Shown: positions 1,758 to 26,497 of the stretch, piece by piece
Layout of the letters: every line of letters begins with the position of its first letter
How positions within the stretch are numbered: position 1 is the stretch's first letter
Origin: a virus
Taxonomy: Duplodnaviria > Caudoviricetes
Length of the DNA: 64,000 nt
Direction: 5' to 3' (one strand)
IMG/VR virus record: IMGVR_UViG_3300025671_008697
Notes under the pieces: model-generated
Database searches by the model: none
What the model saw: only the letters and a program-made list of their open reading frames with translations
Told to the model about the DNA's origin: nothing
Translations under genes and position numbers: made by a program

Positions 1758-2709
1758 AAGATTTTTAATTACAGGTGCAACGGGTTTTATTGGCAGTCAT
1801 TTAGTAGAATATTTTTCTCAGCACAATAATCAAATTGTCTGCGGTGTAAGGAAAGACACAAAAAATTCGTCACGCCTGAAGCACATTGAAAATTTAGAAT
1901 TTGTTGAGTATGGTCTTAAAGAACCTTGTAATCATCTAAGATCACAATTACTTAACATAGACTATATTTTGCACGTTGCCGCAAACCCTAGTTCAGAAGC
2001 CAGCCTACAAGATCCAATTGGCGCAATATTTGATAATGTGGTGGGTACGGGATATATTTTAGAACTAGCACGAGAATTAAATCTTAAACGATTTGTATAT
2101 TACAGTACAGCAGAAGTATTTGGTCCAGTCAGATTAGGCAATGACAGCAAAGAAGATGATCCTTACAACTCTAACAATCCATACGGAGCAACTAAAGCCG
2201 GAGGTGAAGAACTTGCGGTTGCTTACAGTTCAAGTTTTGGCATACCGACATCAGTAGTCCATCTCAATAACTCGTTTGGTGAAAGATGTCAAAGCACTCG
2301 TTTCCCAGTAACCACAATTAAAAAGATATTAAACAACGAAAAACTTGTAATTCATACAGGTGCAGATGGACATATTGGTGGCCGGCGCTGGTATTATGTT
2401 AAAGATGTAGCCGAACATACTGATTTTATTTTACAAAATCAAAAAAGCCATTGTGAAAAATGGAATAGTGCTGGTGCTGAATTCATTGATAATTTATCGT
2501 TTGCTAAGATGATTGCACAAAGTTTGAAAAAAGAGTTACGTTATGATCTTGTGCCAGTAGACAGACCAGGACATGATGCTTATAATCTAGTCAATCCCGA
2601 TAAACTTTATCGTGAAGGATATAAGAACACCAGTACCACACAGGAAAAAATAGACAACATGGTAAAATGGTATTTAAATAATACTCAATGGTTGGAAAAC
2701 GTTCAATGA
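1744..2709 (+). CDS. NAD-dependent epimerase/dehydratase (extended SDR)
   Basis: LITGATGFIG, STAEVFG, YGATK (YxxxK). TTG start at 1744 is preferred over 1720. Confidence 0.9.
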   Translation: MIQNKRFLITGATGFIGSHLVEYFSQHNNQIVCGVRKDTKNSSRLKHIENLEFVEYGLKEPCNHLRSQLLNIDYILHVAANPSSEASLQDPIGAIFDNVVGTGYILELARELNLKRFVYYSTAEVFGPVRLGNDSKEDDPYNSNNPYGATKAGGEELAVAYSSSFGIPTSVVHLNNSFGERCQSTRFPVTTIKKILNNEKLVIHTGADGHIGGRRWYYVKDVAEHTDFILQNQKSHCEKWNSAGAEFIDNLSFAKMIAQSLKKELRYDLVPVDRPGHDAYNLVNPDKLYREGYKNTSTTQEKIDNMVKWYLNNTQWLENVQ

Positions 2710-3647
2710 GTAAGAAGATTGTGTATGTTACAGGTTGCCTGGGATTTATTGGCTACCACGTAACTCGGGCCTGTTTAGAGCAAGGGTGGTATGTTAGAGG
2801 AGTTGACAAAGGCACTTATGCAGCCAATTGGAACTTATTACCAGAGTTACAAAAGTATAAAACTTTTACTTTTGAACATAAAGATATCAATGACATTGAC
2901 AGGATCTATGACAGTGACTATTTTATTAACACTGCTGCCGAAACACACGTAGACAACAGCATTGAAAGTTCAGACGAATTTGTACACAGTAACATCGATG
3001 GTGTTCATCATTTGCTCAAATTGATCAATCAAAAGAAACTGCAAAAACCGATATTTTTGCATTTTAGCACTGACGAAGTCTACGGTGATATAGAGCAGGG
3101 CAGTCATACAGAACAAGACTTGTTACGTCCTAGCAATCCTTACAGTGCCACCAAGGCCGCTGCCGACATGCTGGTGATGGCCTGGGGCAGAACCCATAAT
3201 TTGCCTTACATAATTGTACGCCCCACCAATAACTATGGCATAGGCCAGTATGTAGAGAAACTTATACCTAAAACTTGTAAATTTTTTACAATCGGCAAAC
3301 GAGTTGATCTACACAATAATGGGACTCCTGTTCGTACATGGTTACATGCTTCTGATACTGCTAGTGCAATTATTAAAATTATTGAATCTGGCGTAACTAA
3401 TGAAATTTATAATATTTCTGGTAATTTAGAATTACAAAACATTGAAGTGGTTAAAAAAGTTTCCAAAATAATGCACAACACCGACGATGTTTCCTCTTAT
3501 ATAGAAGATTCGGTTAGAAAAGGGCAAGATGTTAGGTACAGTATAGATGATTCCAAACTTAAAAAACTTGGATGGCGACCACAGGCAGAGTTTGACACGG
3601 AGTTGAAAAAAATAGTAAAATACTACAAGAACAATTTTATTTGGTAA
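2706..3647 (+). CDS. rmlB: dTDP-glucose 4,6-dehydratase-like (RmlB/RfbB family)
   Basis: TGCLGFIG, AAETHVDNS, STDEVYG, PSNPYSATKAA, NNYG, RKGQDVRY. Confidence 0.85.
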   Translation: MSKKIVYVTGCLGFIGYHVTRACLEQGWYVRGVDKGTYAANWNLLPELQKYKTFTFEHKDINDIDRIYDSDYFINTAAETHVDNSIESSDEFVHSNIDGVHHLLKLINQKKLQKPIFLHFSTDEVYGDIEQGSHTEQDLLRPSNPYSATKAAADMLVMAWGRTHNLPYIIVRPTNNYGIGQYVEKLIPKTCKFFTIGKRVDLHNNGTPVRTWLHASDTASAIIKIIESGVTNEIYNISGNLELQNIEVVKKVSKIMHNTDDVSSYIEDSVRKGQDVRYSIDDSKLKKLGWRPQAEFDTELKKIVKYYKNNFIW

Positions 3648-3648
3648 T

Positions 3649-4968
3649 ATGGAACACATTCTTAAACAGGTTCGCGAATACGTTGAACAAAAACAATCTA
3701 ATAAGTCCTGGACTGCAGGTAAAGACTTTGTAAACTATGCAGGCGCACACTATGATGCTGAAGAATACGTAGCAGGTGTAGAAAGTTTGCTTAACGGTTG
3801 GTTGGCAATGGGCACGGCAGGTATTGAGTTTGAACGACGGTTTCCTTCACAGTTCGGCAAAACACTGGGTATTGTGACCAACAGTGGATCCAGCAGTAAC
3901 TTGCTGATGATGGCTTCGCTTACCAGCAAACGTGGTTATAACTTGCCTAAAGGCACAAAAGTTTTGATGCCTATTGCAGGTTTTCCTACTACACTTAATC
4001 CTACCCTACAAGTAGGATTCTTACCTCAGTTTGTAGACATTGAATTAGACACATTAAACATTAATTTAGACCAAGTTGAACGTGCATTAGCCAATGATCC
4101 AGAAATACGTGTAATTACTTTTGCACACGTCTTGGGTAATCCTCCTAACATGGATCAGTTAATGGATCTTGTGCGTAAACACGATTTAATTTTGTTAGAA
4201 GACTGTTGCGATGCACTGGGCAGTACGTGGAACGGTCAACCTCTTGGCAGTTTTGGTTTAATGGCATCATGCAGTTTTTATCCTGCACACCATATGACCA
4301 TGGGTGAAGGTGGATTTGTTGCTACCAATGATCCACAACAAGAAGTTATATTACGCAGTTTCCGTGAATGGGGCCGCGGTTGTTACTGTGTTGGTCCAGA
4401 GGCAAACAAACTGAAATGTGGTACTTGCGGCAAACGATTTAGCGAATGGATTCCTGCCATGCCAGGAGAAATATTTGACCACAAGTATGTTTACGATGAG
4501 ATTGGTTATAACCTAAAACCCATCGAACTACAATGTGCCATGGGCTTGAAGCAGTTGGACAAATTGCCAGAAATACATCAACTACGCCGCCGCAACTACA
4601 AATTGTTACTAGACATTTACAAAAAGCACGAAGAATTTTTTATCTTACCTTATGCACAACCAGGCTCGGATCCATCATGGTTTGCTTTTCCCTTAACAAT
4701 AAGGCAGGGCGCACCATTTAGTCGTAGTGATATAGTAGACTATTTGGAAGAAAACCTTATACAGACACGCCCGTATTTTGCAGGCAATATTATGCTACAA
4801 CCTGCGTACAGCCATTTGATGGATCCGAATGTGGCCCGAAACTTAATGCCCAATGCTACACACGCCATGACTCATACTTACTTTCATGGCACCAGTCCTG
4901 TGATTACAGAACAGCAAATTCAGTACATTGGAGAAATTGTAGACGGCTTCTTAAGTTTGTTTAAGTAA
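3649..4968 (+). CDS. rfbH: NDP-4-keto-6-deoxyglucose 3-dehydrase (RfbH/DdhC/E1 type, PMP and Fe-S dependent)
   Basis: DegT-like fold (NSGSSSNL, EDCCDALG). SFYPAHHMTMGEGG carries His where aminotransferases carry Lys. Cys cluster GCYC...CGTC. Confidence 0.9.
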   Translation: MEHILKQVREYVEQKQSNKSWTAGKDFVNYAGAHYDAEEYVAGVESLLNGWLAMGTAGIEFERRFPSQFGKTLGIVTNSGSSSNLLMMASLTSKRGYNLPKGTKVLMPIAGFPTTLNPTLQVGFLPQFVDIELDTLNINLDQVERALANDPEIRVITFAHVLGNPPNMDQLMDLVRKHDLILLEDCCDALGSTWNGQPLGSFGLMASCSFYPAHHMTMGEGGFVATNDPQQEVILRSFREWGRGCYCVGPEANKLKCGTCGKRFSEWIPAMPGEIFDHKYVYDEIGYNLKPIELQCAMGLKQLDKLPEIHQLRRRNYKLLLDIYKKHEEFFILPYAQPGSDPSWFAFPLTIRQGAPFSRSDIVDYLEENLIQTRPYFAGNIMLQPAYSHLMDPNVARNLMPNATHAMTHTYFHGTSPVITEQQIQYIGEIVDGFLSLFK

Positions 4969-4988
4969 TAATATAGAAATGGTAACAG

Positions 4989-5648
4989 ATGATTAACAAC
5001 GCTATTGAAGTAAGAGAATATCAAGGAAACTCTTGGTACTGGCCCAAACAAGACGGTATTGATGAAAATTCTTGTTGGGACTATCTTACAAAACGATCAG
5101 AAGTTCCTGATAGAATAAGTGAACTAGTAAGCAATAGACAAGTGGTAGTACAAGCAGGTGGTAACTGCGGGTATTATGTTAAACCATATGCAAGAAACTT
5201 TCAAACAGTTTACACTTTCGAGCCAGACCCTACTAATTTTCTTTGTTTATGCATGAACGTTCCAGAGATTAACGTTATAAAAATGCAAGGGTGTTTAAGT
5301 AACAACCATGCACTATTAGGAATGGAAAATCATAAACTTGGACAAGATGTTGGAGCCGGACACGTAGTTCCGGGAGGAGTTTTCCCCTCATTTAGAATTG
5401 ACGATTTAGCACTAGAAGAATGCAATCTGATTCATTTAGATATTGAAGGCTTTGAGTTACAAGCATTGCGTGGTGCTGTCGACACTTTAGAAAAATTTAA
5501 GCCTGTGGTAGTTGTAGAAATTTTTGAAGACTGGGCTAATAGATACGATAGTAGTTTCATAAAATTAAAATCTTTTTTGTTCAGTTATAATTATGAACTA
5601 AAAACTCAAATTGATGGGGATTTAGTTTTTAAACATAAACAAGGATAA
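4989..5648 (+). CDS. FkbM-family SAM methyltransferase
   Basis: VQAGGNCG, VYTFEPDP, LIHLDIEGFE..AL.GA. Confidence 0.85.
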   Translation: MINNAIEVREYQGNSWYWPKQDGIDENSCWDYLTKRSEVPDRISELVSNRQVVVQAGGNCGYYVKPYARNFQTVYTFEPDPTNFLCLCMNVPEINVIKMQGCLSNNHALLGMENHKLGQDVGAGHVVPGGVFPSFRIDDLALEECNLIHLDIEGFELQALRGAVDTLEKFKPVVVVEIFEDWANRYDSSFIKLKSFLFSYNYELKTQIDGDLVFKHKQG

Positions 5649-10424: not shown

Positions 10425-11489
10425 ATGGAGCAAACTTTTCTTTACGTAGAAGACTACATCGAATTTATTTCTGGTTGGCGTACTCGTGGCGGCAAATTGT
10501 TAGGCTTGTTTCAAAATCAACAGAGTCCACTCAGCCTTGCCAGATATGATGTGCAGATTTTATCCAGTCTGGGCGAACAAACTGCACTCAGCCAGAAACC
10601 TTACACAGACAAACAGGCAGCTCTTGCAGTAAAGATTGTTACCAAGTATCGTAAACAGTTAGGCAATTTACCCGATCCTGTTTACATTCCTGAAGTGTTA
10701 GATAACTTCAGGTTAGGTATTAGACAAGTAGATAGAAGTCGCAAAATTTATATTGAAGACGATAAAATTATTGTTCGCTTTCCCTTTGATGGTTCATTGA
10801 TCGAGCAACTACGAGACTTGGCCAAACTAAGTCAAGGTGAATGTAAATGGAATCCCGTTCAAAAGGTGTGGTGTGGTGCCTTAACAGAATTTAATGTAAA
10901 CTACATTGTGGCTTTAGGTCGAGCACAACAGTTTGAAATCAGTGATGAAGTATTGGCACTGCAACAACAAATTCAAGCGGCAGAACAAACTGACTATCGC
11001 ATTGAACTGGTCCGGGATCGCGATGGGTGCTACACTATTACAAATTCAGAACAATCATTAATAGACTATTTGGAGCAACAACTTGGTAGTCACTGTTGGA
11101 CCAACTTGGTCGGATTGTGTGATTATGCACAAGTGTGCGGTTATGCGATAAGTACAGAAGTAGAACAAGAACTTGCAGACAAAGTCAAACCTGACTATTA
11201 TCGAGAAACTGTAAACTTTATTAAGAACAGAAAATTTGGCATTGCCAAAGAAGAGTTCAAACACGTTTTAGAGTATGCACGGTTGACCAACAGGTTGCCT
11301 GTGTACTACTATGATCCCACTTCATTGGATAAAACAGATACTGAAGAGATTGTTTATCTTAATATTGGAAGTCGTGATCCGGAATTAATGAATAAAATTA
11401 AACTGTTGGTAACTCATAGCAGTTTATTAATTGGTAGCAGACGTCAGGGTTGGGCGCAAAATGCAGAAAAGGTAATTGAATTACTATAA
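10425..11489 (+). CDS. Hypothetical protein upstream of the SF2 helicase
   Basis: 354-aa ORF whose stop overlaps the helicase ATG. Confidence 0.75.
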   Translation: MEQTFLYVEDYIEFISGWRTRGGKLLGLFQNQQSPLSLARYDVQILSSLGEQTALSQKPYTDKQAALAVKIVTKYRKQLGNLPDPVYIPEVLDNFRLGIRQVDRSRKIYIEDDKIIVRFPFDGSLIEQLRDLAKLSQGECKWNPVQKVWCGALTEFNVNYIVALGRAQQFEISDEVLALQQQIQAAEQTDYRIELVRDRDGCYTITNSEQSLIDYLEQQLGSHCWTNLVGLCDYAQVCGYAISTEVEQELADKVKPDYYRETVNFIKNRKFGIAKEEFKHVLEYARLTNRLPVYYYDPTSLDKTDTEEIVYLNIGSRDPELMNKIKLLVTHSSLLIGSRRQGWAQNAEKVIELL

Positions 11490-12943
11490 TGGAATGTAGA
11501 TTAATTATTCGTGACGAAGTTAATGTTAAACTGGAAGGTTTAGACTTAGTCACACGCAAAACACTGGTAAACAAATTCAAGTATGAAATACCTGGAGCAC
11601 GTTACTTGCCAGCAGTGAGACTGGGACGCTGGGATGGTAAGGTTCCCTACTTTAATTTAGGTGGCACAACCTACATCAACTTACTGCCCGACATCCTACC
11701 TGAACTTGAAAGTCGTGGCTATGACATTGAAGTAGATGATGTCCGTGACTACAGAACTACATTCGAGTTTGACAAAGTAACAGAGTCAACGTTTGCAGAT
11801 ATTGCTTGGCCCAAAGGACATCCTGCGGCAGGTGAGCCTATTGTATTACGGGATTACCAAATTGAAATTATCAATAAGTTTTTAGAAAATCCACAGTGTA
11901 TACAGGAAGTGGCCACAGGCGCAGGCAAAACTATTATGACCGCGGCGCTAAGTGCAAGTGTGGAGCAGTATGGTAGAACTATTGTTGTTGTGCCCAGTAA
12001 GAGTTTGGTCACACAGACAGAAGCAGACTATGTCAACATGGGTTTAGACGTTGGTGTGCTGTTCGGTGACCGTAAAGAATATACAAGAAAGCACACAATC
12101 TGTACTTGGCAAAGTCTAAACGCATTACTAAAAAATACACGCAACTACGAAGCAGATGTTACAATACAGGAGTTTGTGGAAGACGTAGTCTGTGTAATGG
12201 TAGACGAAGCACACAGTGCCAAAGCAGATGCACTAAAAAGTTTGCTGACCACAGTGTTTGCCCGCATACCTATTCGTTGGGGACTAACTGGTACCATACC
12301 TAAAGAAGATTTTGCTTTTCAGGCACTGAACTGTTGTATTGGTCCTGTGGTAGGAAAACTTAGTGCCAGCGAACTTCAAGAAGCAGGACACCTCAGTAAC
12401 TGTCACGTAAATATTGTACAGTTATCGGATTACGTAGAATACAAAGATTATCAAAGCGAACTGAGATATCTATTAGAAACAGATTCCAGACTAGATTACG
12501 TCAGTGAACTTGTAAACCGTATTGCAGAATCGGGCAATACATTAGTTCTTATTGACAGGGTGGGTCCTGGCAAGGAACTGGCAAGTAAAATCAACAACGC
12601 CGTTTTTGTCAGCGGCGCAACCAAAGCAAAGGATCGAAAGGACGAATATGACGAGATTGCTACTAGCACCGATAAGGTTATTGTTGCGACTTATGGTGTG
12701 GCCGCTGTGGGTATTAACATTCCTAGGATTTTCAATTTGGTTCTTGTGGAACCCGGAAAGAGCTTTGTACGTGTTATCCAGTCAATTGGCCGAGGCATTA
12801 GAAAGGCAGAAGATAAGGACTTTGTCCAGATCTGGGACATTACTTCCACCTGTAAATTTGCCAAAAGACACCTCACTAAACGAAAACAATTTTACCGAGA
12901 TGCACAGTACCCATTCGCCGTTGAGCGAGTAGATTGGCAGTAA
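11489..12943 (+). CDS. uvsW: SF2 DNA helicase, UvsW-like
   Basis: LRDYQ, ATGAGKT, VDEAH, GLTGT, VATYGVAAVGINIP, QSIGRGIR. Confidence 0.88.
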   Translation: MECRLIIRDEVNVKLEGLDLVTRKTLVNKFKYEIPGARYLPAVRLGRWDGKVPYFNLGGTTYINLLPDILPELESRGYDIEVDDVRDYRTTFEFDKVTESTFADIAWPKGHPAAGEPIVLRDYQIEIINKFLENPQCIQEVATGAGKTIMTAALSASVEQYGRTIVVVPSKSLVTQTEADYVNMGLDVGVLFGDRKEYTRKHTICTWQSLNALLKNTRNYEADVTIQEFVEDVVCVMVDEAHSAKADALKSLLTTVFARIPIRWGLTGTIPKEDFAFQALNCCIGPVVGKLSASELQEAGHLSNCHVNIVQLSDYVEYKDYQSELRYLLETDSRLDYVSELVNRIAESGNTLVLIDRVGPGKELASKINNAVFVSGATKAKDRKDEYDEIATSTDKVIVATYGVAAVGINIPRIFNLVLVEPGKSFVRVIQSIGRGIRKAEDKDFVQIWDITSTCKFAKRHLTKRKQFYRDAQYPFAVERVDWQ

Positions 12944-13600
12944 ATGATATCACGTGATAAATTTATACGTTATTTAGAAACAGTAGATTACCTTTACGTT
13001 GGTAATATATCTGCTGATTGGAATACAATTCTGGATGAATGTTATGCATTAGTTGACAAAAGTCCAACTTATTGGAATTCAGTATGTGCAGAAGGTTTGA
13101 AAGATTGGGGAGGAGTCCAAGGTGCAGAAAAGTGGACCGTAACAACAGATGGTGCCGCCGCAGTTGGATACACAAGCCAAAATACTAAATCATGGGGCAC
13201 AACACACGACAAACCACAGTTGCATATGGAATGGGAAAAAATTGTAAAAGATTGGTTGCCATTAGAGCATGCTATAAGCAGACCGTCTTTGCAAAAACCT
13301 GGCAATGTTTTGCCATGGCACAGAGACTATTTTGTGATGTTTAAAAAACATTATCCAGAAGAATCTGAATATGTAATTAGATTTATTGTTTTTATGAAGG
13401 ATTGGGAGCCCGGCCATATGTTTAATGCCGGCGACTCTATTTTTTCAAATTGGAAGGCAGGAGATGCTATTGTTTATCATCCTACTAGATACCACATAGG
13501 CGCGAATGCAGGAATGACAGACAAATGGACTCAAAATGTTACTGGTGTTCTTAAAGAGCAAATAAATTTTCCAGCATTAGATTTAGGTAAAATATGTTAA
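12944..13600 (+). CDS. Cupin/2OG-Fe(II) oxygenase-like protein
   Basis: VLPWHRD (HxD) and distal YHIGAN His. AT-rich. Confidence 0.65.
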   Translation: MISRDKFIRYLETVDYLYVGNISADWNTILDECYALVDKSPTYWNSVCAEGLKDWGGVQGAEKWTVTTDGAAAVGYTSQNTKSWGTTHDKPQLHMEWEKIVKDWLPLEHAISRPSLQKPGNVLPWHRDYFVMFKKHYPEESEYVIRFIVFMKDWEPGHMFNAGDSIFSNWKAGDAIVYHPTRYHIGANAGMTDKWTQNVTGVLKEQINFPALDLGKIC

Positions 13601-14448
13601 TAGGTCATAAACCATTAATTATTCCGGAAATTATAAATTTTATTGATAATATTTTTCCTAATATTACTTGGGAAAAACTAATGCAAGTGGAGCAGCAAGA
13701 TTTAGATCTTGCTTGGAGAACTTGGTTAACTGATAGTCCATGTCATGAAATTAAAGGTTTAGATCAATTTAAATTAAGTTCTTTTTGCCCGGGTACCAGT
13801 GATGCATTCGGTGAATTTATTGCAAGATATCCAAACAGGACAGTAAGGGTAAGTAGAAGCGATTTTATTTTAACTAAAATACTTTGCAAAACTTGGAATA
13901 GAAAACTAGTGTATCTAGAGGATGCACCGCTTGAAATAAACGACTGTATAATTTTGAGTATGCCATATAGCGGAAATGGTAGCGAACTACCCGATCAGGA
14001 CCAATTATTGGACAATGCAGATAAATTAAATGTTCCTGTGTTTGTGGATGGAGCTTATTTCGGAATCTCAACCTCAGTAATTTATCCATTAGATAGAAAA
14101 TGTGTAACCGACTTTACTACAAGTTTAAGTAAAAATATGGTAAGTGATCCTTTGCGATTAGGTATAAGATTTACCAAAGAAAAAATAGATGACGGTATTA
14201 CTGCTACTCTATTGGGTAGTAATGTTTTTGATAGACTTGGTGCATATTTGTCTATACAACTCTTAAAAAACTTCCCCCATAAATGGTTGATTGAAAAATT
14301 CCATAACAAGTCATTAAAAATCTGCCAAGATCTTAAATTACGACCCACCAAAACAATTACTTTAGCGTTGGGACCGGAATCAATGATAGAATTCCAAAGA
14401 GGTGATTATGTTCGAATCTGTTTAACAGACGAATTAATTGCAGATTAG
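13594..14448 (+). CDS. Short PLP-dependent fold-type I enzyme
   Basis: PVFVDGAY (PLP Asp), SLSKNM (Schiff-base Lys), LRLGIR. Only 284 aa, AT-rich. Confidence 0.65.
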   Translation: MLIGHKPLIIPEIINFIDNIFPNITWEKLMQVEQQDLDLAWRTWLTDSPCHEIKGLDQFKLSSFCPGTSDAFGEFIARYPNRTVRVSRSDFILTKILCKTWNRKLVYLEDAPLEINDCIILSMPYSGNGSELPDQDQLLDNADKLNVPVFVDGAYFGISTSVIYPLDRKCVTDFTTSLSKNMVSDPLRLGIRFTKEKIDDGITATLLGSNVFDRLGAYLSIQLLKNFPHKWLIEKFHNKSLKICQDLKLRPTKTITLALGPESMIEFQRGDYVRICLTDELIAD

Positions 14449-15271: not shown

Positions 15272-15735
15272 TGGACAAACTATCGATTAACAATGAAATG
15301 GCTCAGTTCGACACAAAGAACAGACAGTTCTATGACGAACTTACACCAGAAGAACAAAAGAAGTTTAGCACTTACTTGATGCTACGTTATGGTGCCAGCG
15401 TAGAGGGTAGTGCTGACTTTCAAGAATGGTACTTACGTGTAACTAACGAAAGGTTGAATGTAAACTTTTTTGATTTAAATAAACATCCTAAACTGCAATG
15501 GTTATTGGCTACCACAGTTAGTCCGGGTATGGGTCGGCAACGACATTATTGGCAGGCTGCAAAAAAGAAAGAAGGATCAAACAGTAAAGCAGTAAAGTTT
15601 TTGCAAAAGATATATCCAGAACGTAAGCAAGATGAAATAGAACTACTAGCCGCAATCAATGATACTAAGTCTTTAAAACTGTTGGCACAAGAGTCTGGCA
15701 TGACAGACCAGGACATTAAACGGGAATTAGGGTGA
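15271..15735 (+). CDS. Putative clamp-loader small subunit (T4 gp62-like)
   Basis: Size, helical character, F..YLMLRY.S and KHPKLQW..L segments, replication-module context. Confidence 0.5.
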   Translation: MDKLSINNEMAQFDTKNRQFYDELTPEEQKKFSTYLMLRYGASVEGSADFQEWYLRVTNERLNVNFFDLNKHPKLQWLLATTVSPGMGRQRHYWQAAKKKEGSNSKAVKFLQKIYPERKQDEIELLAAINDTKSLKLLAQESGMTDQDIKRELG

Positions 15736-16415
15736 CGTATACCTGTAGGTATTGCAACAAAAGTTACAGTAAAGAAAGCACATTGGCTGCACATCTTTGC
15801 GAGCCCAAGCGCAGGTATCAACAACAGAATGAACAGGGAGTACAGATAGGATTTAAAGCCTATTTGAGATTTTATGAACTTACACAGGGTAGTGCAAAAC
15901 TAAAAACATATGAAGATTTTGTTGGCAGTCCTTATTATATGGCTTTTGTTAAATTCGGCAGACATCTTGTGGCAATACGTTGCATTAATACTGCCAGCTT
16001 TATTGATTGGTTATTAAAAAACAATAAAAAGATTGATCACTGGACCAAAGAGTCCATGTACACAGAGTGGATGTTAGAATACATTCGTAAAGAAAATGTT
16101 AAAGACGCATTAGAACGTGCTTTACGTGAAATGCAGTTACTAGCAGACACAGATGAAAAATTGAAGGGAAATTTTAATGACTACTTTAGATTGGCTAGCA
16201 GTAATCGTGTGGTTAAGCAAATTTGTGATTGTCGTGTCACTGCTTGGATTGTGTTTAATTGCGATAGCGGAATACATTTCCTCGAAACGCTCAACGAAGA
16301 ACAAGTCGGAATGATCTTGCCTTACATTGATCCAGACTTTTGGCAACGTCGTTTCACAGACTATGTTGCAGACACAGAGTGGGTCAAAGATATACTAGCA
16401 AAGGCAGGCCTGTGA
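15732..16415 (+). CDS. Hypothetical protein with N-terminal zinc finger
   Basis: YTCRYCNKSY...LAAHLC (C2HC). GTG start overlaps the upstream stop. Confidence 0.7.
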   Translation: MTYTCRYCNKSYSKESTLAAHLCEPKRRYQQQNEQGVQIGFKAYLRFYELTQGSAKLKTYEDFVGSPYYMAFVKFGRHLVAIRCINTASFIDWLLKNNKKIDHWTKESMYTEWMLEYIRKENVKDALERALREMQLLADTDEKLKGNFNDYFRLASSNRVVKQICDCRVTAWIVFNCDSGIHFLETLNEEQVGMILPYIDPDFWQRRFTDYVADTEWVKDILAKAGL

Positions 16416-17293
16416 TGCTAATGCCGTACTTGATATTGGAAATAGATTTTGTAGGCGGAACCCATGGTAATTTCTTAGAGTTTATTCTTAACCTGTGTTT
16501 AACGAATAAAAAATTGGGGATGCCTTTTACTCAAATAGGAACCAGTCATAAAAAAAGTTATGTGGAAAAAGCGCAGTCAGTTCACAGCGACCATTATATG
16601 ACAGAAAAAATTCCGTTTAAAGGAAATAATATTATTGTTATAGAGATTGATAAAAAAGTTAACTTACTTAATTTACAATCTATAATATTATACCGTGCTG
16701 GCGATAGAAAAATAGAAACTCACGATTTACACATCAAAACTTTTCATAAATTAAACATTAAAATGTATAAATCTCTACTTCAAAATTTATGTAAAAGTTA
16801 TAATGTAAATTTGTCCGAATTGGAACCTAACTGTCCTAGACATATTCTAAGAGAGTTTTTTAAACACGCATATAGAGATAACAGTTTATTTGGTCCGACA
16901 GACGGACAAGAAGAGTTCATTAATTCTTTAATCAAAGAAGGAAAAAAATTATATAGATTTCCAGTTTCATCGTTTTATAATTACGAAAATTTTGACAGGG
17001 AAATTAAAAACATCCAACAATTTTATAATTTTAATTTTTTAAATTATGAATATAAAGAAGAGCACCGAGAATTTTTGCATTATTTAGAATATTTCTTAAG
17101 TTTAAATATCCTACCGGATAAAATAATAAATGCAGTTGAACATGAGTTAGATCTAGAATTTGATAATTTGACTATTTTACAAGAAAGTTATATTAACGGA
17201 AATCTAGAACGTATTTTTAATAAAGAAATGCCATTTTTACAAGAAAAATATTTTATCAACACAAGACAAATTATCGATTACTTGAAAACATGA
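16415..17293 (+). CDS. AT-rich hypothetical protein
   Basis: Overlaps both neighbours (TGATG at 16413-16417, ATGA at 17290-17293). N-terminal DFVGGTHGNFL segment. Confidence 0.65.
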   Translation: MLMPYLILEIDFVGGTHGNFLEFILNLCLTNKKLGMPFTQIGTSHKKSYVEKAQSVHSDHYMTEKIPFKGNNIIVIEIDKKVNLLNLQSIILYRAGDRKIETHDLHIKTFHKLNIKMYKSLLQNLCKSYNVNLSELEPNCPRHILREFFKHAYRDNSLFGPTDGQEEFINSLIKEGKKLYRFPVSSFYNYENFDREIKNIQQFYNFNFLNYEYKEEHREFLHYLEYFLSLNILPDKIINAVEHELDLEFDNLTILQESYINGNLERIFNKEMPFLQEKYFINTRQIIDYLKT

Positions 17294-17871
17294 AATTTCG
17301 TTCAGACATTGACATTGACTTTGCAGACAGAACAAAGATCTTGGACATATTGCCACATACTAGTGCCAGTATAATTAAGGATGGTTCCATCTCAAAACAC
17401 AACACAGGTGTGTACTTTACAGAAATACCGCAAGATCCATTTACAGGATATGCCAGCATAGACTATGAACGAGCAGAAGATTTGGGATATTTAAAGTTAG
17501 ATTTTCTTAATGTAAACCTGTACAGTCAAGTCAAAAGCGAACAACATCTATTAGAGTTGATAGAGCAAGAACCTGAGTGGGACAAACTGTATGATAGAGC
17601 ATTCTGTGAGCAGTTAATTCACATAGGTAATCATTACGATACACTGATCAAGATGCCTGAAGCAGTTAACAGTATTCCTAGAATGGCCATGTTTATCAGT
17701 GTAATCAGACCTGCCAAACGCCACTTAATAGGACAGGCCTGGGGTGAAGTTAGGAAAACTGTGTGGCAACGTCCCGAAGACGACAGTTATTATTTTAAGC
17801 AGAGTCACGCAGTTGCTTATGCTACACTGGTAGCAGTCAACATGAATTTGCTAGGGAATTCTGCGGACTAG
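17290..17871 (+). CDS. Miniature DNA polymerase III alpha (DnaE) catalytic core, 193 aa
   Basis: SDIDIDF, KHNTGVY, GYLKLDFL, ISVIRPA and FKQSHAVAY occur in DnaE order. Confidence 0.8.
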   Translation: MKFRSDIDIDFADRTKILDILPHTSASIIKDGSISKHNTGVYFTEIPQDPFTGYASIDYERAEDLGYLKLDFLNVNLYSQVKSEQHLLELIEQEPEWDKLYDRAFCEQLIHIGNHYDTLIKMPEAVNSIPRMAMFISVIRPAKRHLIGQAWGEVRKTVWQRPEDDSYYFKQSHAVAYATLVAVNMNLLGNSAD

Positions 17872-18225
17872 GGTAATACTACGGCGCTTACTGCGCTTTT
17901 GTGCATTTTCTTTTAGGCTGATTGTGGGCCCATACTTGATATCTACATCCTTGCTGATAAAAGTCTTTAAGCAGACCCTAAAAGGAGCCCAGTCTTGTTT
18001 AATGAAAAGATTTATAGGAACCATCCTATTACTTTCCCACCACCAAGTATCTGCTAGTTCCAAATAAACCTGCTTTTCTTCTTGGGTTCTTAGGATACCA
18101 TAGTCGTAGATAGTAGTAATACTGTCGTCACAATTCTGAATTATGCCTATGTATTCATTGCCGCCGTAGGTCAAAAGACTTAAAAAAGGATACTCTTCTA
18201 GTAGTTTTTGGTAGTATTCTTCCAC
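17851..18225 (-). CDS. Hypothetical protein (leaderless candidate)
   Basis: 124-aa ORF. A perfect TATAAATA on the minus strand (18238-18231) lies 5 nt before the GTG. Confidence 0.75.
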   Translation of the reverse strand: MEEYYQKLLEEYPFLSLLTYGGNEYIGIIQNCDDSITTIYDYGILRTQEEKQVYLELADTWWWESNRMVPINLFIKQDWAPFRVCLKTFISKDVDIKYGPTISLKENAQKRSKRRSITLVRRIP

Positions 18226-23044: not shown

Positions 23045-24061
23045 ATGTTTAATACTGTACAAGACGCAGTCCTCGGTTTACTACCTCCGAAACGACGTCG
23101 TAGCCAAAGTGGTTGGTTAAGTTTCAACGCGGTCTGTTGCAGTCACAGAGGTGAATCAGCAGACACACGTCAACGTGGTGGTGTAATGACACAGCCCGAT
23201 GGTGCAGTCAGTTATCACTGCTTTAACTGTCAGTTCAAAACTGGCTACAAGCCAGGAGCGCCTTTGGGATTCAAATTCCGACGTTGGCTCAAATGGTTGG
23301 GCGCTGATGATGCAGAAGTAAACCGTTTGGTCATTGAAGCACTGAGAGTCAAAGACTTGGTGCAGCCAGAGAGCCAAGAGCCCGAACCCATAGACATAGA
23401 ATTTGAAGCCAGACAGTTGCCCAGTGAAGCCAAAAGTTTTATGGCCCTAGCAGACTTTTATGAACTCAATGAGTGGCGTGATGTGCCCACAGCCTACAAA
23501 GACAGTGTGGCCTATGTACACAGTAGAAACATAGACATGCAACGCTATGAGTTTTACTGGACTCCGGCAGTAGAACACAAACTCGGCCATAGAGTCATAG
23601 TGCCGTTTTACTATAAAAGAAAAATTGTGGGCTGGACTGCTAGAGCACTTAACAGCGGTATAAAACCCAAGTACCACAGTGACCATCCCAGCAACTTTGT
23701 GTTTAACTTGGACCAACAACTGTACGACAACAAGTTTGTCATAGTCTGTGAAGGCGTGTTTGATGCACTAGCCATAGATGGTGTGGCAGTGTTGGGCGCA
23801 GACATCACAGAGACACAGGCAGAACTGATTGAAAGTTTAGGTAGAGACATAATCGTTGTACCAGACTGGGACTCTGCAGGCAGCAAACTCATAGACAGAG
23901 CTGTAGAGTATGGATGGGCGGTAAGTTTTCCCTTATGGAGAGAACAGGCCAAAGACATCAGTGAAGCAGTTGCCAAGTATGGAAAACTGTATGTGTTAAA
24001 AGACATATTAAATAACAAACAGACAAACAATCTTAAAATAAAAATAATGAGTCGTCAATGA
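23045..24061 (+). CDS. DNA primase (Zn ribbon + TOPRIM, gp61-like)
   Basis: CCSH...CFNC, VCEGVFDA, VPDWDSAG, KDISEA. Confidence 0.9.
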   Translation: MFNTVQDAVLGLLPPKRRRSQSGWLSFNAVCCSHRGESADTRQRGGVMTQPDGAVSYHCFNCQFKTGYKPGAPLGFKFRRWLKWLGADDAEVNRLVIEALRVKDLVQPESQEPEPIDIEFEARQLPSEAKSFMALADFYELNEWRDVPTAYKDSVAYVHSRNIDMQRYEFYWTPAVEHKLGHRVIVPFYYKRKIVGWTARALNSGIKPKYHSDHPSNFVFNLDQQLYDNKFVIVCEGVFDALAIDGVAVLGADITETQAELIESLGRDIIVVPDWDSAGSKLIDRAVEYGWAVSFPLWREQAKDISEAVAKYGKLYVLKDILNNKQTNNLKIKIMSRQ

Positions 24062-25488
24062 GCAAAGAGTATACACCAGAACTACAGAAACTATTTTTAG
24101 AAATGGTCATGCAAAATCCTGAAAGTTATTTGAGGGTGCAGAACATTTATAACTTTGAAAACTTTGACAGAACACTACGCAGTGCTGCCAAGTTTATCAG
24201 CGAACACGTCAAAGACCATAACGCCATGCCCACTGCTGAGCAGGTCGAAGCAGTGACACAGGTACAGTTACGACCAGTACCAGACTTGCAGGACAATCAT
24301 TATGATTGGTTTATGACAGAGTTTGAAGGATTTACTCGCAAACAGGAACTGGAGCGAGCAATTCTTAAATGTGCGGACATGCTGGAAAAAGGTGACTATG
24401 ATCCAGTAGAAAAAATCATCAAAGACGCAGTGCAGATCAGTCTGACCAAGGACATGGGCACAGACTATTTTGAAGATCCCAGAGCCAGGTTAATGAAGAT
24501 CAAAAGCAACAACGGACAGGTAAGCACTGGCTGGCCCACAATGGACAAACGTTTGTTTGGTGGTATGAATCGAGGCGAACTCAACATCTTTGCAGGTGGC
24601 TCGGGTAGTGGTAAATCGTTGTTTATGCAGAACATTGCTATTAACTGGATCACACAGGGACTGAACGGTGTGTTCTTAACACTGGAACTTAGTGAAGAAC
24701 TGTGTGCTATGCGTATGGATAGTATGGTAGCAAATGTCAGTACTAAGGAGATTTTCCGAGACTTAGACACTATCGAAATTAAACTAAAGATGGTGGGCAA
24801 GAAGTCTGGTAAAATGCGTATCAAGTACATGCCAGCACAGAGCAACGTAAATCAAATACGTGCTTACCTAAAAGAACTGGAAGTGCAGACAGGACAGCGA
24901 ACAGACTTTATCATGGTAGACTACTTAGATTTGGTCATGCCAGTCAGTGCCAAAGTGTCGCCCAATGATTTGTTTGTTAAGGACAAGTATGTATCGGAAG
25001 AACTTAGAAACTTGGCTAAGGAGTTTAACATCTTAATGGTAACTGCAAGTCAGTTGAATCGTAGTGCAGTGGAAGAAATTGAATTTGACCATAGTCACAT
25101 CAGTGGTGGTATCAGTAAGATCAATACTGCTGACAACGTGTTTGGTATCTTTACAAGTCGTGCAATGCGTGAGCGTGGTAGGTATCAGATACAGTTGATG
25201 AAAACTCGTAGTTCAAGCGGTGTAGGACAGAAAGTAGACTTGGACTTTGACCTAGAGTGTTTGCGTATCACAGATCCAGGTGAAGAAGCACAGGGTACTC
25301 CGGGCAGTTTGAAGCCACAGACCGGCAGTATCATGGCACAGATCAAAGCCAAGAGCACAGTAGACGAAGATACTGATACAAAACCACAACGTGCTACAGG
25401 AACACCTGTGTGGGAACAACAACCTCAGGTAGCAGGTGAAGCACAGAGTACAAAACTCAAGCAGATGTTAGCAGGGCTTAAAAAGTAG
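24058..25488 (+). CDS. Replicative DnaB/gp41-like helicase
   Basis: GGSGSGKS, LTLELSE, VDYLD, ASQLNR, KTR. Confidence 0.92.
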   Translation: MSKEYTPELQKLFLEMVMQNPESYLRVQNIYNFENFDRTLRSAAKFISEHVKDHNAMPTAEQVEAVTQVQLRPVPDLQDNHYDWFMTEFEGFTRKQELERAILKCADMLEKGDYDPVEKIIKDAVQISLTKDMGTDYFEDPRARLMKIKSNNGQVSTGWPTMDKRLFGGMNRGELNIFAGGSGSGKSLFMQNIAINWITQGLNGVFLTLELSEELCAMRMDSMVANVSTKEIFRDLDTIEIKLKMVGKKSGKMRIKYMPAQSNVNQIRAYLKELEVQTGQRTDFIMVDYLDLVMPVSAKVSPNDLFVKDKYVSEELRNLAKEFNILMVTASQLNRSAVEEIEFDHSHISGGISKINTADNVFGIFTSRAMRERGRYQIQLMKTRSSSGVGQKVDLDFDLECLRITDPGEEAQGTPGSLKPQTGSIMAQIKAKSTVDEDTDTKPQRATGTPVWEQQPQVAGEAQSTKLKQMLAGLKK

Positions 25489-25492
25489 AATA

Positions 25493-26497
25493 ATGTTAAG
25501 ATATGAAGACATAAAACAAGTCCATTTAGAAATTTCTTCACTATGCAATGCTAGGTGTCCTTTATGTCCTAGAAATTTTCGTGGCTATAATTATAACGAT
25601 GGATATATTGAAAGGAATCTAACGTTAGATGACGTAAAAAAAATATTTCAAGTTGACTTTTTAAAACAATTATCTAAAATACGAATTAACGGGAATTTTG
25701 GAGATATCGTTATGAATCCAGAAGGACCAGAAATTGTCAAATATTTTAAATCTGCTAATTCTAAACTTCAAATTACTATAAGCACTAACGGAAGTGGCAG
25801 ATCTAAGAATTTTTGGCACCGGCTTGCTGAAAATGCAGAGATAGATTTTTGTTTAGATGGGCTAAAAGACACTCACACATTGTACCGGCAAAATACAGAT
25901 TGGAAAACTATTATAAAAAATGCACAACATGTTATTAAAAACAATGGTGTAGCCAACTGGAAATTTATTTTATTTGACCACAATAAACATCAAGTCGAAG
26001 AAGCAAAAAAACTAGCAATGGACCTTGGATTTAGACAATTCAAACTCGTCGATCATGGAAGGAATACGGGACCCGTTTTTGATAAAAAAGGAAATTTATC
26101 GCATGTAATTGGAAATTATAAAGGAGAGACTAGTTTTCCAATTTTGTTTCATAAGAAAAAAACAGACATGGTTCTTGTTGAAGATATTATAGAAAACAGA
26201 GAACCAAAATTTAATATAAAATGTCAAACAAAAAAAGATTCAGAAATTTATATAACATCAACTGGTGAAGTTTATCCTTGCTGTTTTACAGGATTTAGTC
26301 CTAGGACATATGGGCACGGAGAATATCATGAAGCCGTTAATCAACAGATAAAAGATTTGCTACCAAAAAATAATAATGCTTTAGAAAATACATTAGAGGA
26401 ATGCGTTAGTTGGTTTAATAAAATTCAAAATAGTTGGAAAATTCAGTCATATGAGCAGGGAAGACTTATTGTTTGTGATGATAATTGTGGATTATGA
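25493..26497 (+). CDS. Radical SAM protein with SPASM/twitch-like C-terminus
   Basis: CNARCPLC, C-terminal C...GEVYPCC...C...C. AT-rich. Confidence 0.88.
   Translation: MLRYEDIKQVHLEISSLCNARCPLCPRNFRGYNYNDGYIERNLTLDDVKKIFQVDFLKQLSKIRINGNFGDIVMNPEGPEIVKYFKSANSKLQITISTNGSGRSKNFWHRLAENAEIDFCLDGLKDTHTLYRQNTDWKTIIKNAQHVIKNNGVANWKFILFDHNKHQVEEAKKLAMDLGFRQFKLVDHGRNTGPVFDKKGNLSHVIGNYKGETSFPILFHKKKTDMVLVEDIIENREPKFNIKCQTKKDSEIYITSTGEVYPCCFTGFSPRTYGHGEYHEAVNQQIKDLLPKNNNALENTLEECVSWFNKIQNSWKIQSYEQGRLIVCDDNCGL

Follow-up and report, generated by a model that had tools for sequence, protein, structure and literature searches.

The 193-residue open reading frame and its relation to C-family polymerases

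The window analyzed here is a stretch of 64,000 nucleotides from a virus of the Caudoviricetes (Duplodnaviria; IMG/VR record IMGVR_UViG_3300025671_008697), which corresponds to G000:C1:90141-154140 on the minus strand of a 167,330-bp record that is approximately 45% complete. An intact open reading frame (ORF) of 193 amino acids with an ATG start is located at 17290-17871 on the plus strand of the window (G000:C1:136270-136851(-) in the stored record), and its ATG overlaps the stop codon of the upstream ORF in the form ATGA. The motifs D6-I-D8-I-D10, H37..G40-V41, K69-L-D71-F-L73, R140-P141 and F169-K-Q-S-H173-A-V-A-Y177 occur in this order, in agreement with a preliminary description made from the sequence alone, which had reported an intact, coupled ORF carrying them. 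That description favored a stand-alone 193-residue polymerase or nucleotidyltransferase and gave one piece of a multi-gene split polymerase as the alternative. The results below point to the alternative: the ORF, hereafter the C-half, most probably encodes the metal- (Mg2+-) and template-binding half of a split minimal DNA polymerase III alpha subunit (Pol III alpha).

The homology of the C-half to C-family polymerases becomes visible only with a profile or a fold. As a single sequence, it retrieves no Pfam family at E values up to 1, it is not matched in a search of the genome with PF07733, and a phmmer search of the PDB yields nothing significant, only chance beta-glucosidase rows (E 0.66) that align via "KLDFL"; the reading of motifs from one sequence could therefore have been chance. 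A full-length match to phrog_11778, annotated as "DNA polymerase", is obtained with an E value of 7.6e-66 (positions 4-192 of 197). Additionally, a profile of 85 diverse homologues with 28-64% identity to the query (alignment A1) retrieves only C-family polymerases (DnaE/PolC) from the PDB, with E. coli 2HNH at an E value of 7e-6. E. coli DnaE residues 538-641 (K553/D555 to "FRPG") are matched by profile positions 54-140, and residues 739-769 ("FNKSHSAAYA"), in which FKxSH corresponds to residues 756-760, are matched by positions 151-180. Thus, K69 and D71 are equivalent to K553 and D555 of E. coli DnaE, and D6, D8 and D10 are equivalent to D401, D403 and D405 when mapped through a natural fused homologue (P0278, described below) that aligns to E. 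coli residues 319-417. The proposed identity of the three catalytic aspartates with D401, D403 and D555 is therefore borne out.

The AlphaFold2 model of the C-half has a mean predicted local distance difference test (pLDDT) value of 96.8 and a predicted template modeling (pTM) score of 0.89, and the first 13 rows of a Foldseek search with this model are all Pol III alpha or PolC. Alignment with VIA-align superimposes 188 of the 193 residues on residues 459-837 of Taq Pol III alpha with a Z score of 9.4 and a root-mean-square deviation of 3.6 Å, and Z scores of 8.4 and 6.8 are obtained with residues 397-780 of the E. coli enzyme and with PolC, respectively. C-family polymerases fill the best ten rows, after which the Z score falls to 3.6. 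The structure prediction that the preliminary description had called for thus returns the palm-fingers fold of Pol III alpha. The chain comprises the palm strands with D6/D8/D10 (the DxD strand) and K69/D71 (the KxD strand), the HxxGV hairpin, and reduced helical fingers, a shortened helix bundle that carries R140-P141 and K170/H173.

Residues K69, D71 and P141 are invariant across the 85 sequences, and D6, D8, D10, A26, H37, G40, W97, A133, I139, R140, K143, K170, H173 and A178 are conserved in at least 90% of them. The ratio of nonsynonymous to synonymous substitution rates (dN/dS) of the C-half gene is 0.067-0.081 at dS values of 0.72-1.6 against the three nearest DNA relatives. Clustering of metagenome proteins at 90% identity gives more than 8000 clusters each for the C-half and its partner (see below), and their lengths are tightly conserved. 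The gene, as had been supposed, is kept by strong purifying selection and is not a remnant: a dN/dS of approximately 0.07, the large number of length-conserved clusters and the retention of the catalytic residues together exclude decay. The C-half is a real, conserved piece of a C-family polymerase and not a chance set of motifs.

In E. coli DnaE, the PHP domain spans residues 1-280, the palm and fingers 281-432 and 510-810, the thumb 433-509, the tip of the fingers 811-928 and the tail 929-1160, and the clamp-binding motif is located at 920-924 (Fernandez-Leiro et al. 2015, PMC4703070). The C-half covers E. coli residues ~396-780, so that 193 residues stand for approximately 385. Its residues 11-36 stand for E. 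coli 406-432, and H37 (the "HAGGV" position) comes immediately after them, which indicates that the whole thumb is absent. In the place of the finger segment 642-738, which comprises approximately 100 residues in E. coli, the C-half has about ten. The PHP domain, the tip of the fingers, the clamp-binding motif and the OB/tail region are likewise missing. The absence of the PHP, thumb, clamp-binding and OB parts that had been claimed from the sequence is consequently upheld, and the deletion of long segments between the motifs is upheld for the thumb and for 642-738; the fingers, which had also been claimed as absent, are instead kept in reduced, helical form.

The 170-residue partner protein

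The C-half begins only five residues before the DxD motif and therefore lacks the GRGS nucleotide-binding loop, the first Pol-beta-like palm strand and the adjoining helix. These elements are encoded elsewhere in the same genome by an ORF of 170 amino acids, hereafter the N-half (G000:C1:42032-42544(-)), which is located outside the window, approximately 94 kb from the C-half gene and on the same strand. A stand-alone Pol-beta-like nucleotidyltransferase would carry an hG[GS] motif and a DxD on one chain, whereas here the DxD starts at residue 6 of the C-half and GRGSS resides on the partner. With the Gly-Ser loop and the first strand and helix on one chain and the strands that bind the metal on the other, the C-half alone cannot form a complete active site, and the stand-alone enzyme of the preliminary description is not sustained. 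Its alternative of a split polymerase fits the presence of the N-half, and was already in print in 2021 (PMC7824862).

The N-half matches PF07733 at positions 18-94 with 32.8 bits (cut-off 23.9) and aligns to residues 377-454 of Taq Pol III alpha, ending exactly where the C-half begins. Its end, "...GVGRGSS...DLDIQEFLK", corresponds to E. coli "...GPGRGSG...FERFLN", which is the segment directly before "PERVSMPDFDVDF". The DnaE profile phrog_405 (1190 positions) is matched by both halves in colinear order, by the N-half at 366-429 and by the C-half at 554-608 and 776-809. In the alignment of N-halves (A2), GxGRGSS is invariant and all members stop at EF(L/I)(K/R). The genes for a cytidylyltransferase-like protein and a MazG-type nucleotide pyrophosphohydrolase are neighbors of the N-half gene (L003:2-439 (-) and 2395-2805 (-)), a context of nucleotide metabolism.

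The distribution of the two halves is nearly the same. The C-half occurs in 96 phage records (all at a coverage of at least 80%) and the N-half in 97, with almost identical counts of host genera. Both halves are present in each relative checked, namely the near-complete genome G001 (338.5 kb, 97% complete), G002 and Phosso, and are approximately 100 kb or more apart. Their spacing is always large, with values of 43 kb in PA5oct, 182 kb in Atu_ph07 and 224 kb in Phosso. A search of G001 with a full-length DnaE profile for a third piece returned the N- and C-pieces only, the other rows being at chance level (E of at least 0.01).

A word-index search for longer or fused forms of the C-half found none; an exhaustive search of 1.84 billion representatives later gave 419 clusters at E values up to 0.001, nearly all of approximately 190-200 amino acids, and among them the 375-residue protein P0278. 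This natural fusion consists of an N-half (15-180), a 9-residue linker and a C-half (190-372), and its alignment to E. coli DnaE runs across the junction of the halves. It is encoded on a 2.4-kb metagenome contig (L009:1066-2193 (+)) from a single sample. The nearest relatives of P0278 (48% and 45% identity) have the split length, which suggests, at the level of sequence, that fusion or fission took place within the split-polymerase family.

Prediction of the N-half and C-half as a complex gave an interface score (ipSAE) of 0.92, and the best of three controls scored 0.00. Of 80 solved complexes, 58 attain the mark applied to this score, as do 2 of 110 mismatched pairs. At least 93% of the contacts are common to the runs, the pLDDT of the partner is at least 91, and 165-184 interface contacts are predicted. 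In the model, the stretch 131-144 of the N-half rests on residues 1-12 of the C-half.

Identity, proposed mechanism and alternatives

Iyer, Anantharaman, Krishnan, Burroughs and Aravind (2021, Viruses 13:63, PMC7824862) described the split minimal Pol III alpha in jumbo phages of group 2.2; they found it beside a family B polymerase, suggested a role in the synthesis of one strand or in repair, and proposed the split minimal core as a picture of the ancestral enzyme. GenBank orthologues are already labeled "DNA polymerase" or "DnaE-like DNA polymerase III alpha". The split polymerase has thus been known since 2021 and is not new from this window. The C-half shares 42-50% identity over its full length with the group 2.2 proteins RaK2 ORF124, PA5oct gp264, Atu_ph07 gp074 and Phosso gene 437. 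As in that group, the two genes are distant and on one strand, the C-half gene has a convergent gene for a protein of approximately 120 residues, a structural protein gene, a primase gene and a DnaB gene as neighbors, and a family B polymerase is present in complete relatives. Unlike the described members, the present jumbo phage is uncultured and from freshwater, has an upstream ORF without a family in place of Endonuclease_7, and encodes a contiguous 557-residue mini-DnaE that was not reported for the group by Iyer et al. (PMC7824862) and is absent from the 97%-complete relative.

Cellular DnaE and PolC enzymes (E. coli 2HNH, Taq 2HPI/3E0D and M. tuberculosis DnaE1 5LEW) share with the C-half the Pol-beta-like palm, the DxD and third aspartate, the HxxGV hairpin and the RP and FNKSH finger motifs, with Z scores of 8-9.4 over nearly the whole chain. 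In contrast to these enzymes, the palm is divided between two polypeptides, and the C-half has no PF07733 match, PHP domain, thumb, segment 642-738, tip of the fingers, clamp motif or OB/tail. The contiguous phage mini-DnaE proteins (the 557-residue protein of this genome, that of LR756508.1, and the "DnaE-like DNA polymerase III alpha" of Streptomyces phages and other actinophages) are also shortened, PHP-less, phage-encoded members of the C family, but this type is made as a single chain in which an insert in the thumb region and the whole finger segment are retained, and its similarity to the C-half is weak (BLAST E value 0.006). The intein-split DnaE of cyanobacteria (DnaE-n/DnaE-c) is likewise a C-family polymerase made from two distant genes; its halves carry split inteins and are spliced to the full-length enzyme, whereas the phage halves have no inteins, are broken just before the DxD, and yield a minimal product.

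The favored explanation is that the ORF at 17290-17871 is the C-terminal half of the split minimal Pol III alpha that characterizes jumbo phages of the RaK2/PA5oct/Atu_ph07 type (group 2.2), and we assign a probability of approximately 0.9 to this explanation. On the basis of the complex model, the two chains would associate non-covalently, with no intein involved, and strand 133-137 of the N-half would pair with strand 7-11 of the C-half to give one palm sheet and one active site in an assembly of approximately 363 residues. The fragments thus appear to complement each other, as the preliminary description had considered, but the predicted product is a minimal enzyme and not the ordinary DnaE that it had envisaged. 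The heterodimer would be a low-processivity (distributive), clamp-independent and non-proofreading DNA polymerase, and may assist the family B replicase of the phage in gap filling, repair or recombination-dependent synthesis.

Several points weigh against this explanation. The thumb is absent, and so is the finger segment 642-738, the latter being kept by the contiguous 557-residue paralogue; because of these two absences, templated, DNA-dependent synthesis is an assumption. The binding of the halves is a prediction, and the high score of the complex model, which supports it, may come from likeness to solved DnaE structures, as can happen where a gene has been split. A search of the available literature found no biochemical or genetic test for any split-polymerase member. 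Additionally, no family B polymerase (PF00136) was found in the 167-kb record of this phage, which is approximately 45% complete.

The same absences form the basis of an alternative in which the heterodimer is real but acts as a specialized nucleotidyltransferase, for untemplated tailing, the synthesis of primers or short oligonucleotides, or the production of a nucleotide signal, perhaps with the protein of 124 residues encoded next to the C-half. The Pol-beta-like fold underlies many untemplated transferases, the thumb (E. coli 433-509), segment 642-738, tip of the fingers, clamp motif and OB domain are all missing, and the small clade-specific gene is always convergent to the C-half gene. 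This alternative is nevertheless unlikely: at least 90% of the sequences keep RP(x)K and FK(x)SH(x)xAY, finger motifs that are specific to DnaE and foreign to generic Pol-beta-like transferases, the C-half gene is flanked by helicase, primase and DnaB genes, and the C-half was read as template-binding by Iyer et al. 2021 (PMC7824862). A more general form, which we consider similarly doubtful, holds that the heterodimer is no conventional template copier and works beside the family B replicase and the contiguous mini-DnaE. In that case it would either perform specialized transfer or need a third, clade-specific subunit, because it lacks the thumb and the 642-738 finger segment; the 124-residue protein would be the obvious candidate.

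Much less probable is a self-sufficient hyper-minimal polymerase or transferase of 193 residues. All three catalytic aspartates and several finger motifs do reside on the C-half, and the chain folds confidently in silico on its own, but the Gly-Ser loop and the neighboring palm strand and helix are missing from it, it co-occurs with the N-half in the phage records and in each relative checked, a natural fused form exists, and the predicted interface is large. A covalent joining of the halves by a split intein, or a gene in decay, has a negligible probability. Cyanobacteria do possess a split DnaE with trans-splicing inteins. In the phage proteins, a Pfam family search found no intein/Hint domain in the N-half or the C-half, the N-half ends with EFLK-stop and the C-half starts with MKF(R/K)SDIDIDF, the lengths of 170 and 193 residues leave no room for intein halves, and the break (E. 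coli ~393/396) is at another site than in cyanobacteria; the selection and conservation data given above speak against decay.

The split enzyme of the favored explanation would be the smallest known core of a C-family polymerase and, divided over two genes, may serve as a minimal model from nature for the active site of Pol III alpha. Phages with culturable hosts that encode it include PA5oct and RaK2. The finding itself is real, the stand-alone reading is wrong, and the split alternative is right.

Other polymerases and genomic context

The search for other DnaE fragments and for a family B polymerase that had been suggested at the outset was productive in part. Besides the N-half, the genome encodes the contiguous PHP-less mini-DnaE of 557 residues, which is located outside the window on the minus strand (G000:C1:66668-68341, equal to L002:517-2190) and matches PF07733 (E 2e-41) and PF17657 (E 9e-16). 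It aligns to residues 386-845 of the Taq enzyme, followed by approximately 140 unassigned C-terminal residues, and keeps the finger segment that is missing from the C-half. Its best relative (39% identity) is encoded by the uncultured phage LR756508.1 (484 kb), in which a family B polymerase but neither of the split halves occurs. The 557-residue gene was not present in G001, G002 or Phosso. On the grounds of these absences and of the best relative's lack of split halves, it is an accessory acquisition and not a partner of the split pair. The family B polymerase itself is found in G001, G002 and Phosso, but not in the incomplete record of this phage, in which no PHP domain was found either.

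The gene that is convergent to the C-half gene (17851-18225, minus strand; 124 residues, phrog_11637) shares 21 nt with the 3' end of that gene. It occupies the same position in PA5oct, RaK2, Atu_ph07, Phosso and approximately 77 IMG/VR loci, and the 89 phage records that carry it have the same host-genus distribution as the split-polymerase clade. The protein is homologous in the four named phages (44% identity to the PA5oct homologue, E 6e-36) and has a basic tail and two invariant motifs, YGGN.Y and WWWESNR. Its model has a pLDDT of 78.7. No Pfam match was obtained, and the Atlas features gave no usable match; the best PDB row in Foldseek is Hfq-like and insignificant (E 0.12), and BFVD returned only two unnamed viral proteins. 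It is possible that this protein is an accessory factor or subunit of the split polymerase.

The order of the C-half gene, the convergent gene of approximately 120 residues, a virion structural protein gene, the primase gene and the DnaB gene is identical in PA5oct, RaK2, Atu_ph07 and Phosso. In the window, the replication context downstream of the C-half consists of a Toprim primase (23045-24061, plus strand), which is kept downstream of the C-half in PA5oct, RaK2 and Phosso, and a DnaB-like replicative helicase (24058-25488, plus strand). Upstream, an SF2 helicase (ResIII/DEAD/Helicase_C) is encoded at 11489-12943 on the plus strand, and a 227-residue C2H2 zinc-finger-like protein (phrog_11058; 15732-16415, plus strand) is an upstream neighbor that is kept in close relatives. 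The ORF directly upstream of the C-half (16340-17293, plus strand) has 317 residues from the TTG at 16340 and no family match; a start at the ATG at 16415, giving 292 residues, is more likely. Because the closest relatives hold a 131-residue Endonuclease_7 gene in the same slot (L094:5609-6004, L096:5609-6004 and L097:4977-5372), the upstream ORF is a variable insert or cassette within an otherwise syntenic block, not a conserved partner.

The window differs from the stored record at 16 of its 64,000 positions, which are clustered at reverse-complement offsets of ~4457-5534 and leave the C-half ORF unaffected. The full-length stretch is present in many freshwater metagenome runs from 2017-18. 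One DNA run contains an apparent joint ("skips 607") with no more than 20 letters on one of its sides; this was taken to belong to another organism. Two salt-marsh metatranscriptome libraries contain small contigs of approximately 98-99% identity, one of which (267 nt, at 17453-17719) falls within the C-half ORF; RNA libraries can carry DNA, so these contigs are not proof of transcription. Weak matches to a radical-SAM protein (25493-26497, plus strand, just past the DnaB helicase gene; 26 bits, below the cut-off) and to an aminotransferase (13594-14448, plus strand, upstream of the C-half) are also observed, and these genes may be auxiliary metabolic or modification genes.

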